Shown here piece by piece: positions 1-7,668 of a stretch of 64,000 nt of DNA. How positions within the stretch are numbered: the first letter of the stretch is position 1; every line of letters starts with the position of its first letter. Made by a program: the position numbers and the translations under genes. Under the pieces are notes generated by a model. It did not search any database and was not told the origin of the DNA. It saw only the letters and a program-made list of their open reading frames with translations. The stretch is from an uncultured Chthonomonadaceae bacterium (GTDB taxonomy: Bacteria > Armatimonadota > Chthonomonadetes > Chthonomonadales > Chthonomonadaceae). The DNA is taken from contig CAWFQB010000014.1 of NCBI GenBank assembly GCA_963817895.1, forward strand, positions 352,001 through 416,000. The letters run 5' to 3'.

Positions 1-1230
1 CCACGCCCCCACCCTCGTGGTGGTGCCAGGTGGAACCTTCCTCAGTGTATGCTGGATCCATCTGAGTGGCTCGCCAATTCGCATATTTAAACTGCACCGA
101 ATCTTTCTGATGCCACATATCATTGTGAGTTACACCAGTATCTGGGTCCGTCCACTGTTGCGGCGTCTGAAACTCGATGGGTTCTCCTTGTGCATTGGTA
201 CGAACTACGCTGGAGAAGTCTGCGTATTTGCGCGGACCAAGCGGCGTATTCACAGTTGTGACTGGAATGTTGGGAACCAAATTTTGGTCTATCGCCTGTT
301 GCCTGATTTGCATCTGCTCCGAACGAGGAATGGTGTCAGAGTTGAAATGGTCAGCCCACCGCCAATCAGTGTCTGAGTTTACCATGTCCGCATAGCGTTG
401 AGCGCGCATCGGGCGCAGTCGCTCGTCGCGTTGTGCAGGTGTCTCATTCAGGGGTGCGCTTGCATCGCTTTGAGCAATGGCGTCGCGTTGTGCCTGTGTC
501 ATTGGGGGCGGGTCGCTCGACCGAGTCATGAACCGAGCATCAGCATCCGTGTTGCCGAAGCCTCTCCCCTCGGTTGCCCCCCCTGAGCCAAAGTTGTCAT
601 GGCCGACGATGTATCCGTGATCGTTGATGGGACTACCTGGTACTTCACCTGGAGGGAACACACCCTTATCGTTGAAGTGGGTAATATCGCCTGACCAGTC
701 AATAACGGCTTCGGGACGCGCTCCCTCAATTGCCCTTCCATTGGCGGTAGCCGCCTGTTTAGCGTTCACATCAATGCCGAAATGCCCGTGGTCGTCCTCG
801 TAGTTGCCTCGGTTAGTTACCTCAACCGGGTGTGTATGCGCTACCCACACCTCATTGTCGCCAAGAGATTTGGGGTTGAGTGACTCCTCGTTTCCCATTA
901 CGGCGCGCAGTTTACCGGTATTGACATCCTGCGCTACGCCGACTTCTTTGCCATACCATTTAGATGCTTGTGCCAAGTCGTCCGTGTGTACGCCGTTACC
1001 CAGCGGCGCTTCACCCGTTTCCAGCGCTTTCACCAACCGCTTGGCGCCGCCGTTCATTTCGTGGAACTGCATGTCCGACGAAAGGTTAGGGGCTTGCGTA
1101 TTGCGGGAGATCCCGCGCTCGTTCATAACGCCTTCCGGCAAGCCGCGCCTGGCTCCAAACAGGCGTTCGGCAGGTCCGGCGGCGAACGGCATCAACTGGC
1201 TGCCCGCTTCTTCACTTGCATACGCACCCA
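1..1230 (-). CDS. C-terminal toxin region of the PAAR effector (JAB/MPN-like domain followed by WHH-type HNH nuclease); runs off the window edge
   Basis: Not in the ORF track. Hand translation of the minus frame has no stop from ~1228 to position 2: GAYASEEAG...KEVGVAQD...EVWVAHTHP (~827-838)...RKYADFS...QFKYAN...GSTWHHHEGGGV (WHH at ~20-28). Continues the 1212..2051 ORF after a frameshift near 1228. Confidence 0.8.
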
Positions 1231-2051
1231 GAACTCCCTTTGCCAAAAATCTTCTCCCCTGCCCATCCGAATGCTGCCCCTCCGCCTTTGCTCAAGCCAT
1301 AGCCTGCGCCTCCCTTGAGCGCAACGATTCCGGCAGCCCGAACTGCCGCCAAGGTACGCGTTGTATTGGTAATCGCGGCGCCGGACGTTGCCGCGCGCGC
1401 CAATCCTTGCGCATATAAACCCGGCAACTCCCCTAATAGGCTGACGATGCACATGGCTCCGCCAATGATCTGCATCGCGTTCCCCACAACAATAGCGCTC
1501 TGCGCCAATTCCTCCAAGAGTTCCGGCACCTCGCTGTCAATGTGAGCGCAAGCGGCCATGCCGCCGCCAATAAAAACGTCAGGACTGCCCTTGCCAATTT
1601 CGAAATCACAAGTGCCGTGATCACTGACGCGCGATGCCATTTTCATGTTGATGAATACGCAGTCGCTGCCGGTTGCTACCATAGAGTTCGGCCCATGCTG
1701 ATTGCAGTCAACCTTGCTGCCGCAGGCAATTGCAGCAGGTATATTGTTAACGAAAACATCGTCGCTGCCCGTCAGGATGTTTCCACAGGGCGTTGTGTGC
1801 TTGCGTCCTTCTTCCTCTCCTTTGAAGAAACCATACCCAGCCATCGAAAGTACGCCGCCCTCAGAAGCAATCACTGTGCCTGCAATGGCAATCAAGGCCA
1901 GTGTGCCGGTTCCGGCAGTGGCTACTGTTAATGCAATCACGGCCGCCCCAATGACAGCGCCAATAAGAGCGCCCTCCAAAGCCCCCCAGAGGGCGGATGA
2001 GAGCGCCTCGCTATGTGTTACCTGATCTCCTACGCGCGCTGCTGCCGGCAC
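1212..2051 (-). CDS. prePAAR/TMD/PAAR effector, N-terminal part
   Basis: Starts MPAAARVGDQVTH (prePAAR AARxxDxxxH), then hydrophobic Gly/Ala helices, then a PAAR domain (ILTGSDDVFVNNIPAA...GSDCVFIN..ASRVSD..C...IGKGSPDVFIGG), then a second hydrophobic region. Directly downstream of the VgrG-like gene. Confidence 0.88.
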   Translation of the reverse strand: MPAAARVGDQVTHSEALSSALWGALEGALIGAVIGAAVIALTVATAGTGTLALIAIAGTVIASEGGVLSMAGYGFFKGEEEGRKHTTPCGNILTGSDDVFVNNIPAAIACGSKVDCNQHGPNSMVATGSDCVFINMKMASRVSDHGTCDFEIGKGSPDVFIGGGMAACAHIDSEVPELLEELAQSAIVVGNAMQIIGGAMCIVSLLGELPGLYAQGLARAATSGAAITNTTRTLAAVRAAGIVALKGGAGYGLSKGGGAAFGWAGEKIFGKGSSGCVCK

Positions 2052-2178: not shown

Positions 2179-4015
2179 TTATTTCTCATCGCAGTTGAGG
2201 AGAATGACTTTGCCCTTGGCAACAATCGCATCCGTGGAGGTGAGGCCTACACCTGCGTTGCCGTCCACCGTAACATACTTTTCATCAGCTTTGACGTTCA
2301 CGCTCTGCTTGGCATGCAGTCCAATACTGCCTGTTTCCACCTGCGAGACAAAATTATTTTTAGCCTGCATAGCAATGTTCTCATCATCAGTCTTCAGCTC
2401 CATTACGTCACCAGATTGCGCCAACATCGTAATCTTTTTCGCTTGGATGTGCAAATGGTTTTGCGCATAAATAAGCATGTCGTTGCTGCCACGCAATTCC
2501 ACGCGGGTTCCATTTTTGTTGACGCTGATGTGCAGGCTATCGGCTTCGCTGCCGCCACTCAAGATGCTGACATGATGCCCGCCGCCATCCGTATGCGCTT
2601 CCAGAATGGTTTGACCTTTGTTCTTCATGCGAACTACTTCGTCCGCGCCTCGCGTCGTCATCGTCACTTCGTTGCCACTTGGCGTACTCCATCGTTTCGT
2701 GTGCTTGGGGTTGTTGGTGGTCTTCTGGCTGGTGTGGCGCACCGTTCCCAAGATCACCGCTTCGCTGTCCCAATCCCCTAAGAACTCTACCAGCACCCGC
2801 TCCCCCACTTCCGGCACACTGTAAAACCCGCTGTACGCGCTGGACTTCTTACCGCCGTCATGCCCGCCCCCATACGGCGTCACCTGATGCAGCCACGCCC
2901 GATCACCAGAAGGCTGCGGGTCCAGATGTTCCCACTCGAACTCCACCTGAATACGCCCCCTGCTGCAAAGGATCATGCTCGTTAGCCGTGACATTCGCCC
3001 ATAACGCGCGGCTCGGCCACTCAGGACGCTCTTTGTGCGGCGGAAGAGGTAGCGTCAAGGGTTGCAGCCACAACTCCTGTGTTCCCGTCGTTTGTTCCGG
3101 GTGTCCCACGATGCGCGTCTGGTGAATGAGATGCTGCTGACCCTCGAAAGAAACCACCTGCCCCGGTTGAAACGGCAGCACCATGCCTTCCAAGCGCAGG
3201 TAGTAGCCGCTGATGTCGTTGTGTCCCTTCGTGTTGCTCACGTTGCTGGTGATGTCGGGACGTTCGGGAGCCTGCATGTAATCGGCGGTGGTTCGGCTGA
3301 GTTGTCCTAAATGCTGGCTGGCCTGCTGACGCGCCAGAGCTGTTGGGCCGCTGCCGCCGCTCGGAGGTTCGGGCAGAGTATGCAGACTGCCGCCGAAACT
3401 CACTTCCGCCCACCCGAAGTTGATGTCGGGGAACGTTTCACTCGCTTCCTGTCCTCTGGCTCCTAACTGCACATCCCCGGTTCTGTCCACAACCGCGACA
3501 GGAACGCTCCACGCATGGCACATTCTTGCGAGGTACTGGTAGTCGGTTTCGAGGTACTGCAAACTCAGGGGAATGGGCTTGGCAAGATCGCCCGCGTTGA
3601 CGATCTTGAAGCGCGGTTCGGTTTTGGCGACCTGCTGCGCGATGTCAAGCAGGGTCGTGGCCTGAAACGCGCGATGGCGCGGCACAAGATCGGTACGCTT
3701 GCTGTAGCTGACGCAGGAGAGTGTCAGGCGCGAACTGTTGGCGTCGCGCTGACCCGACGTGTTCTCCACATACCCGTGAAAGCAGTTGAGCGCTTCCACC
3801 AGATCGTTGTCTTTCCAGTTCACGTCAACCGGGCAGTTGAGCGCTTTGCCCGCGAGCATGGCGGTCGGACGTTCGCCGTAGTGGTTGTGTTCCTGCCAGC
3901 GCCACGTCAGATGGGCGCGGGTATGCTCGTACAGATGGCGTTCCACCACCACTTCCGTCAGGAACTGGTGCGCCCCCAACTCCTCCATGCCTGCCACGTC
4001 TACCTGAAACGCCAT
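2179..4015 (-). CDS. vgrG: VgrG-like spike protein (gp27-like N-terminus, gp5 OB-fold, beta-repeat tail); frameshift near 2960
   Basis: ORF 2903..4015 has LQYLETDYQYLARM and ends ANVTANEHDPLQ. ORF 2179..2994 continues GRIQVEFEW...AWL..VTPYGG...GFYSVPEVGERVLVEF...VILG, typical phage-baseplate-V/VgrG motifs. Confidence 0.85.
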
Positions 4016-4159: not shown

Positions 4160-4642
4160 TCATCGCGACCACAACCTGCGCCGCCGCGATGAACTTCCCG
4201 ATACGAGGCGCGTTACGAGGGGTTCGGCTCGGACTTCGCCTGCCGCGACGGTGAGAATGTTCTTGCCGTCGTAATCCACGTTGTTATGCACCAGTGTGCC
4301 ACGAACCAGCAACTCAATGAAGTTGCCCTGATCCGTCTGGCTTCCCGACTGCGGCGGGAACTCCTTCTCCGTATAGCTCTGGATGTACGCCTTGTGCAGC
4401 GTCCACGTATGGTTGACCACGCGGGAACGATCCATCGTTTGCAGCTCGACGGTCTTGAAGCGGCCCGCGCTGTGCGGAGCCAGCGCCCACTCGGCGATCA
4501 TGGTGTCATGGTCGAGCGGCAGGCTGATGCGGAACTGCTGCACGGGAATCTGCATGGGTTCTTTCGCGTCGCCATGCGTGATCTCCACAGTGGCGTCTAA
4601 GACGCGGTTGATTTTGGTACCTTGAATGGTTAATCCGGGCAT
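4160..4642 (-). CDS. Hcp/TssD-like tail tube protein (putative)
   Basis: Start at ATG 4642 (MPGLTIQG) after GGAAAGGA. ~160 aa, beta-rich, with IAEWAL...FKTVELQTMD...HTWTLHKAYIQSYTE matching the tube pattern W...K.VEL....W.L..A.I.SY. Lies between the sheath-like gene and vgrG. Confidence 0.7.
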   Translation of the reverse strand: MPGLTIQGTKINRVLDATVEITHGDAKEPMQIPVQQFRISLPLDHDTMIAEWALAPHSAGRFKTVELQTMDRSRVVNHTWTLHKAYIQSYTEKEFPPQSGSQTDQGNFIELLVRGTLVHNNVDYDGKNILTVAAGEVRAEPLVTRLVSGSSSRRRRLWSR

Positions 4643-4807
4643 TGTTTCGTTTCCTTTCCAACCTTCACGGGTTGGCACTGTCCTCGAAACTGCACACGTC
4701 CGAGACATGGTTGCTACACTTCGAGCTGACAGAGTCCGTTGCTCGAAGAGAGGACAAGAGCGCAGGGTGGGAAGTTCCCGCGACTGCACATTGGTCGTCA
4801 GGTTTGC

Positions 4808-4928
4808 CGGTTTGCCTGTCGCACGGCAGGGTTTATTCTGCAAGCGAACAGGCTTGCGGCAAACCGTTGTGAATCCTGGGCGGTATCGGCTCGATAACCG
4901 CCCAGGCGCGGTGACGCCCCGTGGGGCG
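4808..4928. other. Cluster of stem-loops in the intergenic region between the sheath-like and tube genes
   Basis: cggtttgcc(4808)/ggcaaaccg(4866) stem enclosing two small hairpins; near-perfect hairpin cctgggcggtatcg-gct-cgataaccgcccagg (4875-4906); cgcccc-gt-ggggcg (4915-4928). Confidence 0.55.
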
Positions 4929-4952
4929 ACAGCTTTGCGTTCGGAACACAGG

Positions 4953-7602
4953 TCAGAAGTTGATGCGGAATTCATCAATCAGACCCTGCTCGAAGCCGAA
5001 CGCGACTTTGAACGAATTTCCGTTTTCCCGCTGCACGGTGAACTCGCTGCCCTCCTGCAATTTGCTGGGGAACGAGTTGACCAGTTTTTCCGGCGAGTAC
5101 CATTTGCCATCGCCATCCGCGTTGCGGGATTTTGGCGCCCATTTAATCAGATACTCCAGATGGCCGCGCAATTGCGCTTCCGCCTGCGCATTATCCGCCG
5201 GCCACGCGCCCCCGAAACCGAGTTCGTGCGCCGCCCGCAGCAGGCGGTTCAAGTAAACCTGCTGCCGGAACAGATGCAGATGCCGGTACGAAGTGGTTCC
5301 GTCCGCAAGATTCAGGCGGCGCATGGTGCGCGGCACGGACAGGAACGGCGAACGTCCCGATACGTGCGTGAACACCAGAAACGGCATATCCGGGTTCAGC
5401 AGGTTGCTCAACACGCCGTCATTAAGAAAGTGATCTGTCGGCAGATCAGTTTCGCCAAGGTAAGGGTTCGTGGCAAGGTCAATGCCGACGCCCGGCAGGT
5501 CCGCCCGCATGGACGTGACCTCCTTACGCGCATGTTGCAGTTTGCGCCGCACGTAATCGGGCACGTCGTTCGCCATCAGCCGCCCCGCCGCCACAAAACA
5601 CGAGCGCACCGTCAGTTCCGGCACGTCCACGCCGATTTCCACGCTGCCATCCGCGGTTTTGCCCGTAACCAGTTTGCCATCCGGCGGCATGATCATAAAA
5701 TCGGGTACGCACAACACGCAGCAGTCCGCCGATTCCTGCTCCACAACCTGGTCAATGGCATACGCATCGCTCAGGTTTTGGAAGAAGTCCCGTTGCGCGC
5801 GTCCCGCCCGAACCCGCTCTTCGGGCGAAAACAGGATTTGGAAGCCGTATTGCGCGCCCCAATCCATCAGTTCCAGCATCTCATCTTTATACGTGACGCG
5901 CCCGTACCCGTCCTGATCCTGTAGACCGGCTTCCTGCGCGGCCTCAATGGACGCCAGAATGGGGTCGTACAGCATAATGCTCTCCTGCTTCTTCTTTTTG
6001 GCAGGGCGGCTCTTGCGGAACTCCACGACATTGGGCACGATGACAAACGAAATGGCATCCCGGAACTGATTGGTCGCCTGCGCGCAAACGATGTCGAAGT
6101 AGCGCTTCAGTTCTTCGGGCCGGGTCAGGAATAGATCGGGCAGATCGGCATTGGCGATTACCAGTTCCGGCTTCATGCCTTCCGCCAGGCGCACATCGGA
6201 GGGAAATTCATTGAACAGCAGATACACGCCCATGATGGTTTCAAACAGCGGCGTGACGACTTTCAGGAAATCCCCGATGGCGTTGCTGTACACGCCCAGA
6301 AACATATCGTGGAAGTGATCTATTTCCTGCGCGTCCGGGTTCAGCAGAGCGCAGTTCTTTGGGATTTTGCAGCACGGTCGCCACCAGATTCCCCATCAAG
6401 CGGCTGAATCATGCCCCGGCTGACCATCTGATCCATAAACTTGCCGACCGCGATAGGAAACCGCTTCTCCTGCGGCACGAGGGAAATATCCTGATTGGCG
6501 ACTTTTGCGCCCTCCTCGCGGATTTTATCCAGCGCGCTGACAACAGAGCGTACGGCGATGTTCGGTTTGCCCTTGCTGCTGTCGTGGGCGGCTTTATCCC
6601 CGGTCTTGCTCAATGCTTCGTGATCTCCGGTTTTCGCCAGCGCGCCCTTGCTCTTTTCCCGCTTTGCCCTCTTCCTGTCCGGCTTCTATTTGCGGGGCGG
6701 TCAGGTTTATCGCCGGCGATACTTTTGCTGCCATTGTCCAACGCGGCCGGGGGCGCGACGGCTGTCGGCAGATGCTGCGGCGAAGCGATAAGCTGCTTGT
6801 TTTTGCCGAACTCTATCTGATAGACATTAAGGTCCATTTCGCCATGATGCTGGGAAGCCGTTTCAATTCCCGGCTGGTCTGTTCCAAACCATACACGACA
6901 GTCGGCAGCATGCGCACGCTGTCTTCCAGCGCGCCCTGAAACTCATCCGCCACGCCCTGATACGCTTCCAAGGCGCGAGCGGTATCTTTGGAGCCGGGGT
7001 TGCGCTTGGCTTCCAGCATCAGCCGGTCGTTTTTTACCTGCACATCTTCGGCCAGTTTGCGCATCAGCGTTCCGTTGGTTTTTTGGTTTGAACGCGAACA
7101 GCGAGGCATCCACATCCACGCGGAAGGTAGATACATCCTGCCGCACACGCTTTTTAATCAGGTCGGTAAAGCAGCGGATATAGGGGTGATCCGAGGTAAT
7201 GCGCACTTTTTGCCAGCTGCCCCACCCTCAAGGGAGAATTCCAGTCCAGGCGCGTTTGATCCCTGACTCTGCGCCATTTGCTTCCGAGCCGTCCTCTTCC
7301 TGTCCCTCAACGGCTCGCGGTCCGGCCACGCGGTAGTAAAATCCCGGCTGAAATTTGTCCAGAAACTCGCGGAAGGAGGTTACTGTCAGATTTTCGCGCA
7401 CTTCTGCGATAAACTGCTCTTCGGACGTGTCGTTGATACGCGCCAGCATAGTTTCCAGCGAAGGCGTCAGTTCGCGCTCTTCAAGGGGCAGTTCCGGGTC
7501 CAGATGCTCGTCCATGTTGACACGGGCGAATAGTATGGCGCGGTTGGTTTTCCCCAACATTTTGCGATTGGCTTCCAGAATAGTTTCATTCGTTATCGGC
7601 AT
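4953..7602 (-). CDS. Large divergent contractile sheath-like protein (~880 aa), broken by several frameshifts
   Basis: Overlapping or adjacent ORF pieces 7228..7611, 6943..7206/6813..7148, 6610..6837, 6341..6613 and 4953..6305. ATG 7602 preceded by AAGGA. C-terminal piece has sheath-like motifs LCVPDF...RSCFVAAGRLMAND (cf. PPSG..AG..A..D) and PRTM...YRHLHLFRQQVYLNRLL (cf. ARTL...WRY.NVRR...I). Confidence 0.6.
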
Positions 7603-7668
7603 AGCGGTCAATCCTTCACGAGACGATGCGACGACAAGAGCGCAAGAGAGCGCAAATCAGAACAGAGG

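Follow-up and report, generated by a model that had tools for sequence, protein, structure and literature searches.

A JAB-like domain and a WHH nuclease domain in tandem beside a PAAR gene, with two candidate immunity genes, in a Chthonomonadaceae bacterium

Introduction

The prediction that JAB domains serve as bacterial toxins, and the proposal that they are nucleases, date from 2012 (Zhang et al., 2012; PMC3482391), and for Tox-JAB-2 both activity and substrate were still called unknown in a 2024 preprint. The Tox-WHH nucleases are recognized by the signature WHH, L, H and HxG, and SUKH is a listed partner (PMC3482391). Effectors that carry two toxins and need two immunity proteins are also already known (PMC12135965). 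These WHIX double-blade T6SS effectors, such as Awe1, are cargo proteins in which the toxins flank the secretion domain and are mostly directed against peptidoglycan (PMC12135965).

Here we describe a locus of an uncultured Chthonomonadaceae bacterium that, like the WHIX effectors, would combine two toxic domains in one effector. A separate immunity protein for each domain has been shown for WHIX (PMC12135965) and is proposed here for two adjacent genes. In contrast to WHIX, the two domains would form the C-terminal end of a PAAR carrier, one behind the other, are likely to act in the cytoplasm and have both partner genes downstream. We consider it reasonably probable that the tandem of a JAB-type and a WHH domain is the toxic half of a prePAAR-PAAR antibacterial effector with two separately neutralized warheads.

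Results

A putative tandem toxin frame at the window edge

The window, i.e., the whole stretch of 64,000 nucleotides that was analyzed, corresponds to positions 352001-416000 of contig C14 in assembly GCA_963817895.1, here labelled G000. An earlier note on this DNA had claimed a long open frame on the minus strand, and this frame is present in the assembly with all the motifs that were quoted for it. It contains no stop from window position 1291 to the left edge, measures 471 codons from stop to stop and overshoots the edge by 124 nt. Its parts are as follows:

1..1246, minus strand: toxin frame P0003, 456 aa from TTG 1246, running beyond the left window edge to a stop at C14:351876
599..1117, minus strand: JAB-like domain, residues 44-216, with E101, H137-T-H139, H155-F-x-x-D159 and E179 (from 66 other clusters, conservation, an AF2 model and fold searches)
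398..598, minus strand: linker of ~67 residues from the JAB-like to the WHH domain, holding a C7 run at window 577
1..397, minus strand: WHH-family HNH nuclease domain (Pfam WHH), residues ~284-456, with the last 41 residues outside the window, to C14:351879

The sequence NEVWVAHTHP occupies residues 131-140 (HTHP at window 838), YADFS is found at residue 341 (window 226), QFKYAN at residue 385 and TWHHHE at residue 406 (window 31). The remainder of the WHH domain beyond the window edge contributes MQQVP, H437 and NHDGG. When P0003 was compared with 61 genomes only the self-match was found, and word-based protein searches with the toxin returned the query alone or no match.

The JAB-like domain

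Residues 40-240 matched 66 other clusters at E up to 0.001 in a search of 1.84 billion representatives. A JAB family in Pfam was found for none of the 66 clusters at E 0.001 and for none of 41 at E 10. Pfam, PADLOC and NCBIfam returned no JAB-type family for the domain itself, solved-structure sequences and plasmids gave nothing credible, and a profile of the domain run across 301 genomes of the phylum matched G000 alone. The carriers among the 66 clusters include, by Pfam, proteins with RHS repeats (5), eCIS_core (6), PAAR (3) and PT-TG (1). Five proteins (P0057, P0062, P0047, P0049, and P0055) combine the JAB-like domain with a further domain: in two chains this is another toxin domain, Ntox33 after it or TNT before it, and otherwise there are unassigned tails of 167-768 residues.

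The alignment consisted of the query and 61 homologues (62 rows), with five partial hits left out. H137, T138, H139, D159, and E179 are conserved in all 62 rows and E101 in 61. Four residues ahead of the Asp, H155 is found in 51 rows and a Ser in 5, and F156, at the third position before it, is found in 49. The earlier note had placed the Glu of the motif directly ahead of HTHP. A metal-site Glu does exist, not at that position (E132, Glu in 46 of 62 rows) but at E101. Its observation that the canonical SxxD is missing after HTHP holds, as the JAMM Ser, which stabilizes the tetrahedral intermediate, is absent and the sequence reads HFxxD instead. The suggestion that the domain may be inactive was rejected, since the residues in catalytic positions (E101, H137, H139, and D159) are conserved in 61-62 of the 62 rows. 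The query differs from its closest homologues by insertions of 7 and 11 residues.

An AF2 model of the domain (pLDDT 87.9, pTM 0.85) has E101 at the beginning of a strand, the HxH where a strand ends and D159 in the helix after it; a layout with E, HxH and D on the same elements has been described for JAMM (PMC3239186). The ten top rows from Foldseek were all AMSH, AMSH-LP or Sst2, although weak (best E 0.028, TM 0.28). With VIA, cytidine deaminases (Z 5.3-5.4) tied with JAMM1 (Z 5.2, rmsd 3.5, 100 aligned), again weakly, and the JAMM and deaminase superfamilies have a common fold (PMC3239186). The nearest atlas clusters were Toxin-JAB1 at 0.91 with a low count of shared features, and a profile-profile comparison with five DUF4329 members gave E 0.0039 and a probability of 8.7%, with the E and HTH in register. 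Each of these matches is weak alone; they are consistent with one another and with the JAB/MPN-like middle domain put forward in the earlier note, and we regard such a fold as plausible. Deaminase chemistry, with an HxE and CxxC zinc site, was also considered and was rejected because residues 44-216 hold no cysteine.

In common with Tox-JAB-1 and Tox-JAB-2 the domain has a putative deaminase/JAB fold, the E/HxH/D signature, the terminal position on Rhs-type carriers and a dedicated downstream gene (PMC3482391). It differs from both by HFxxD in place of SxxD, by the extra invariant E179 and by a partner that is an unnamed CxxC protein. The features of Tox-JAB-1 that are absent here are a profile match to PF15659, the NxxxE motif and an Imm65 lipoprotein as partner, the partner found being without a Pfam family. 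Those of Tox-JAB-2 that are absent are a match to PF14220 (DUF4329), which was found neither in G000 nor among the homologues, the combination of S and D and an Imm-NTF2-2 partner. We therefore place the domain outside Tox-JAB-1 and Tox-JAB-2; judged from its conserved residues, it may well work as a JAB-fold metal hydrolase.

The WHH domain and the SUKH gene

The WHH nuclease claimed in the earlier note passed the Pfam cut-off for WHH (25.1 bits) with 27.3 bits for the whole of P0003 and 30.1 bits for the C-terminal 140 aa. The part of the nuclease inside the window had Colicin-DNase as its best match at only E 0.083, because the rest of the domain lies outside.

The domain resembles Tox-WHH with Imm-SUKH (Pfam PF14414; PMC3482391) in passing the Pfam cut-off, in having WHH (in TWHHHE 406), H437 and HxG (in NHDGG) all present, and in having a SUKH gene next to it, in the place where a SUKH, Imm28 or Imm37 gene is expected. 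It deviates in that the conserved Leu before the second His is a Gln, in a 13-residue insertion after WHH and in its position behind another toxin domain. Both sequence deviations are seen relative to a plasmid-encoded WHH protein (MQQVP vs. MELVP at the Leu position) that is 31% identical over 190 columns from about residue 267 of P0003. The domain boundaries of ~284-456 are based on this alignment. The next ORF on the plasmid is SUKH-like by eye, which suggests that WHH and SUKH form a mobile unit.

The earlier note had also proposed that immunity genes be sought left of the window, and a gene of the SMI1/SUKH type directly follows the toxin:

C14:351829..351344, minus strand, outside the window: SUKH/SMI1-KNR4 gene, likely WHH immunity, 46 nt past the toxin stop

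Its product scored above the cut-off for both SUKH_6 (54.8 bits) and SMI1_KNR4 (47.3 bits). The WHH domain likely cuts DNA, and the SUKH protein is likely to provide immunity to it.

The CxxC partner gene

A further gene follows SUKH:

C14:351299..350319, minus strand, outside the window: unnamed CxxC...HxxC protein (residues 1-225) fused to ankyrin repeats, identified by profile match

The gene has GGAGG 10 nt upstream of a GTG start, and the ankyrin repeats are at the C-terminus. Homologues of the JAB-like domain with a downstream gene were analyzed at eight outside loci, from a Bacteroidetes MAG, a Pirellula MAG, Micromonospora and five metagenome contigs, two of which encode identical proteins, leaving seven distinct loci. 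All eight pairs were drawn from one of the two visible subfamilies of the JAB-like domain, the other subfamily being eCIS_core-linked (e.g., P0021 and P0032). At 8/8 loci (7/7 distinct) the JAB-like domain ends the protein and a CxxC gene, encoding 216-244 aa, starts within ~11 nt of the stop. In G000, a homologue of these partners (24-31% identity, E 1e-36 to 6e-8) is encoded after SUKH. With a profile from the eight outside partners only, a single match, at E 1e-46, was obtained among 107,787 six-frame segments of G000, and that match is the gene right after SUKH. The two-warhead proposal of the earlier note thereby gained independent support from a second, domain-specific partner gene.

C6, C9, H48, and C51 are invariant in 8/8 aligned rows, which suggests a zinc site. 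No Pfam family was found for residues 1-225, and although the AF2 model has a pLDDT of 90.8, no clear match to its fold was obtained (Foldseek best E 0.12, VIA best Z 4.0, atlas best 0.80). Missing library and fold matches, here as for the JAB-like domain, do not establish a new fold. A word-based protein search with the partner found 4 proteins, and a search of 623 genomes from the partner side added five genomes in which the match was weaker (E 5e-18 to 7e-6), none of which (0/5) had a JAB-like gene within 1.5 kb. These distant homologues may be orphan immunity genes; immunity genes apart from toxins have been described for polymorphic-toxin systems (PMC3482391). From its conserved position, the CxxC protein likely confers immunity to the JAB-like domain.

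The internal position of the JAB-like domain in P0003 could also mean that it is an autoprocessing or accessory metallopeptidase that frees the WHH domain, with the CxxC protein as a chaperone or cofactor. Peptidase activity is known for JAMM enzymes (PMC3239186), there are relatives with different internal modules, including one that looks papain-like, and the distant CxxC homologues were found without toxin. The domain is however terminal in most homologues: no more than 59 residues extend beyond the match in 57 of 61 and no more than 14 in 30 of 61, some of these being contig fragments. Autoprocessing, which the earlier note had raised, is therefore largely unsupported, since most homologues have little C-terminal sequence to release. 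The CxxC gene is moreover in the position of an immunity gene at every distinct locus, and its occurrence without toxin is known for immunity genes of such systems (PMC3482391). We consider this explanation improbable and prefer a toxic JAB-like domain with its own immunity protein.

Frame changes in the assembly and the JAB-WHH join

We compared G000 with a genome of the same genus over 53 stretches (1.05 Mb) and found 114 frame changes, in 83 of 346 genes, or 0.28/kb. The commonest class was +1 (57/114). In the first 13 stretches there were 25 shifts in 72 genes, compared to 7 in 86 in the reciprocal test. The changes were not concentrated at long homopolymers, and the housekeeping Clp ATPase of G000 was matched in 8 pieces. 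At 0.2-0.28 breaks/kb a gene of 2.2 kb has a 36-46% chance of containing a break, and other split-gene findings from G000 should be treated as suspect.

This bears on the join between the two toxin domains. The C7 run at window 577 is just past the natural end of the JAB-like domain, and in the neighboring frame a TGA stop overlaps the ATG of M240, an arrangement that would fit an indel in the run having joined a toxin that ended in the JAB-like domain to an independent WHH cassette. One of the four G/C runs of 7 in aligned genes is indeed located at a +1 shift. Across the whole genome, however, no enrichment of breaks is seen at the 118 G/C runs of 7, of which 41% fall in open frames compared to 45-47% for runs of 4-6, and 5.1% would be open with one base fewer compared to 4.9-5.8%. 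A merged join would also require that a whole toxin-immunity cassette separates a toxin from its own partner gene. An artefactual join is thus very improbable, and we take the two domains to form one frame.

The PAAR carrier and the frame break

The gene upstream of the toxin frame encodes a candidate carrier:

1212..2051, minus strand: carrier half with a prePAAR match below cut-off, a hydrophobic stretch, PAAR, a second hydrophobic region and, at its end, a class II r4-like motif (AFGWAGEKIFGKGSS) with the TGA stop at 1212
1212..1250, minus strand: frame break between carrier and toxin, with the toxin frame offset by +1 (mod 3) and ~10 linker codons absent

ORF 2051..1212 scored 39.7 bits for PAAR_motif (cut-off 27), while prePAAR_I was below its cut-off of 25 with 23 bits (E 1e-4). 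Hydropathy places the hydrophobic regions at residues 16-71 and 185-213. The r4-like motif, which is cut by the break, reads AxxxxGxxIxGxxxS; the class II pattern is GxxxxGxxLxGxxxD (PMC7773334). The earlier note had spoken of one PAAR protein. The PAAR ORF is adjacent to the toxin frame and overlaps it, but in a different frame, and we infer the fusion from comparison with relatives.

In the phylum, each of the 11 PAAR homologues that are informative reads as one frame into a long C-terminus. The syntenic gene in G002 is one frame of 397 aa with EndoU at the end, and the ten PAAR genes of another genus (L049-L058) are single frames, one further gene being cut by a contig end. In P0013 a single chain holds PAAR, the r4 motif and the same JAB-like domain. 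Three contigs from one DNA run (share 0.06) all lie outside window 1-1890 and hence do not span the junction.

Two sets of relatives were observed in addition. P0058 is a prePAAR-PAAR protein 35% identical to the PAAR ORF of the window that reads in frame into the first half of the JAB-like domain and diverges after HTS. In the ten genomes L049-L058 the PAAR effectors are 475-882 aa long without Rhs repeats, and several have an internal module ahead of the terminal toxin. An HExxE module, possibly Tox-REHH-like, is common to three of these proteins with differing C-termini, and a module that is papain-like by eye is common to two. Their Pfam matches include RNase A, YwqJ and BURPS deaminases, CdiA_C and Ntox28. 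Stacking of modules on PAAR tips may be characteristic of this lineage.

The break between PAAR and toxin is probably an assembly indel, because the assembly is rich in indels and the informative relatives are in-frame fusions; this is our judgement from the error rates, not a measured value. A simple one-base error is insufficient, because ~10 residues that follow the r4 motif in 4/4 homologues showing it (G002, P0013, G126, and G329) are also missing in G000, and a real deletion of the linker is possible. A deletion of ~30 nt could have inactivated a former two-warhead effector, leaving the toxin frame silent or yielding an undeliverable product from TTG 1246 that is kept in check by both immunity genes. 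Besides the missing codons, this would agree with the SD-like GGGGAG 7 nt upstream of TTG 1246 and with the division of some class I prePAAR effectors into two ORFs (PMC7773334). Against this, +1 is the phase most often produced by error in this assembly, a gene of this length has the chance of a break given above, and both toxin domains and both partner genes are intact. There is also nothing that points to programmed frameshifting. We therefore hold a real break to be unlikely, and continue with an effector that is fused to its carrier.

The probable delivery machine and neighboring genes

Two more genes near the toxin are relevant to its delivery:

2179..4015, minus strand: vgrG-like spike gene, with Phage_GPD and Phage_base_V above cut-off
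C14:350208..349723, minus strand, outside the window: DcrB-family gene (DcrB 56.8 bits), likely an Eag-type chaperone

The vgrG gene is split near 2958, where it has one extra base relative to an in-frame paralogue, and it reads in two frames against the single-frame gene of G002. A gene upstream of the toxin locus gave a weak tube-like match (E 0.064). Since the homology of Eag to DcrB has been stated (PMC7773334), the DcrB-family gene is likely to encode a chaperone of the Eag type that serves the prePAAR effector. No match to the TssM, TssL, and VipB profiles (TIGR03348, PF09850, and PF05943) was found in G000 (81% complete) or G002 (91%), and the ClpV model was below cut-off. Delivery is therefore likely to depend on a contractile injection system of divergent type, divergent forms of T6SS being possible.

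The locus of this system extends over window 4160-7611 and, left of the window, to about C14:338500, and is syntenic to G002:C44:77000-94000. It includes vgrG, a tube-like gene, a long gene in the sheath position, genes in baseplate positions and a weak TssK-like match. Left of the DcrB gene (L001:9335-13294) we observed further candidate effectors: one of 347 aa that resembles glycoside hydrolase 19 by eye but matches nothing in Pfam, another vgrG, which is partial, and a lipase with a frameshift, after which comes an ankyrin gene. A vgrG in G002 (C44:88340-90772) has a C-terminal extension with HEMTH, likely a metallopeptidase effector domain.

The proposed effector resembles the class II prePAAR effectors, such as Tse6 and Tne2, that use Eag chaperones (PMC7773334), in its PAAR domain and, less clearly, in a prePAAR match below cut-off, two hydrophobic regions and an r4-like motif that is cut by the break. 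As in these, there is no Rhs cage, a DcrB-family gene is nearby and vgrG is located upstream. It differs in being ~720 aa long if fused, compared to ~450 aa, in having two toxin domains, and in belonging to a machine for which TssM, TssL, and VipB profiles were unmatched in both genomes.

Discussion

A model for the effector would be as follows. The DcrB/Eag-type chaperone would shield the hydrophobic segments of the carrier while PAAR docks on the adjacent VgrG spike of the divergent contractile injection system, and these segments would bring the C-terminus into the target cytoplasm. There the WHH domain would likely cut DNA. For the JAB-like domain, the prediction is zinc binding via H137, H139, and D159, proton shuttling by E101 and hydrolysis of a cytoplasmic target. 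A nucleic acid or nucleotide is the most likely target, at about even chances; a peptide or isopeptide bond is a less likely alternative. The producer would be protected by SUKH against the WHH domain and by the CxxC protein against the JAB-like domain. The frames, motifs, family, gene order and error rate are direct observations, and fusion to PAAR, toxicity, immunity and substrate are deduced from them.

In the likely origin of such an effector, a WHH-SUKH cassette entered between the end of a JAB toxin and the partner gene, in frame with the toxin, and the order toxin, SUKH, CxxC would follow from this insertion.

Double-toxin effectors and JAB toxins are known in kind. In our literature search we found no description of the JAB-like family or its partner, which may stand unnamed in the alignment supplement of PMC3482391. 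No description of the JAB-like family was found in PMC9424270, PMC7259588, PMC13483458 and the Rehh preprint. The JAB clade and the CxxC partner thus appear undescribed; PMC13483458 also contains 24 unnamed toxin families. We tentatively propose, at somewhat less than even odds, a third JAB-fold clade of polymorphic toxins with altered chemistry (a His for the JAMM Ser and an extra invariant Glu) that is neutralized by an immunity protein whose fold is undescribed and which likely has a zinc site. This clade would be used here in tandem with a DNase on a divergent injection system whose PAAR tips routinely stack several warheads.

The locus offers a compact domain of 173 residues, defined catalytic candidates and a matched partner gene, and therefore the activity of a JAB toxin becomes directly testable in E. 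coli. With it, the two-toxin, two-immunity design of the WHIX cargo effectors would also be found on a PAAR carrier, with warheads that likely act in the cytoplasm. The locus further suggests a simple origin for this design, in which a toxin-immunity cassette enters, in frame, between an existing toxin and the gene for its immunity protein.
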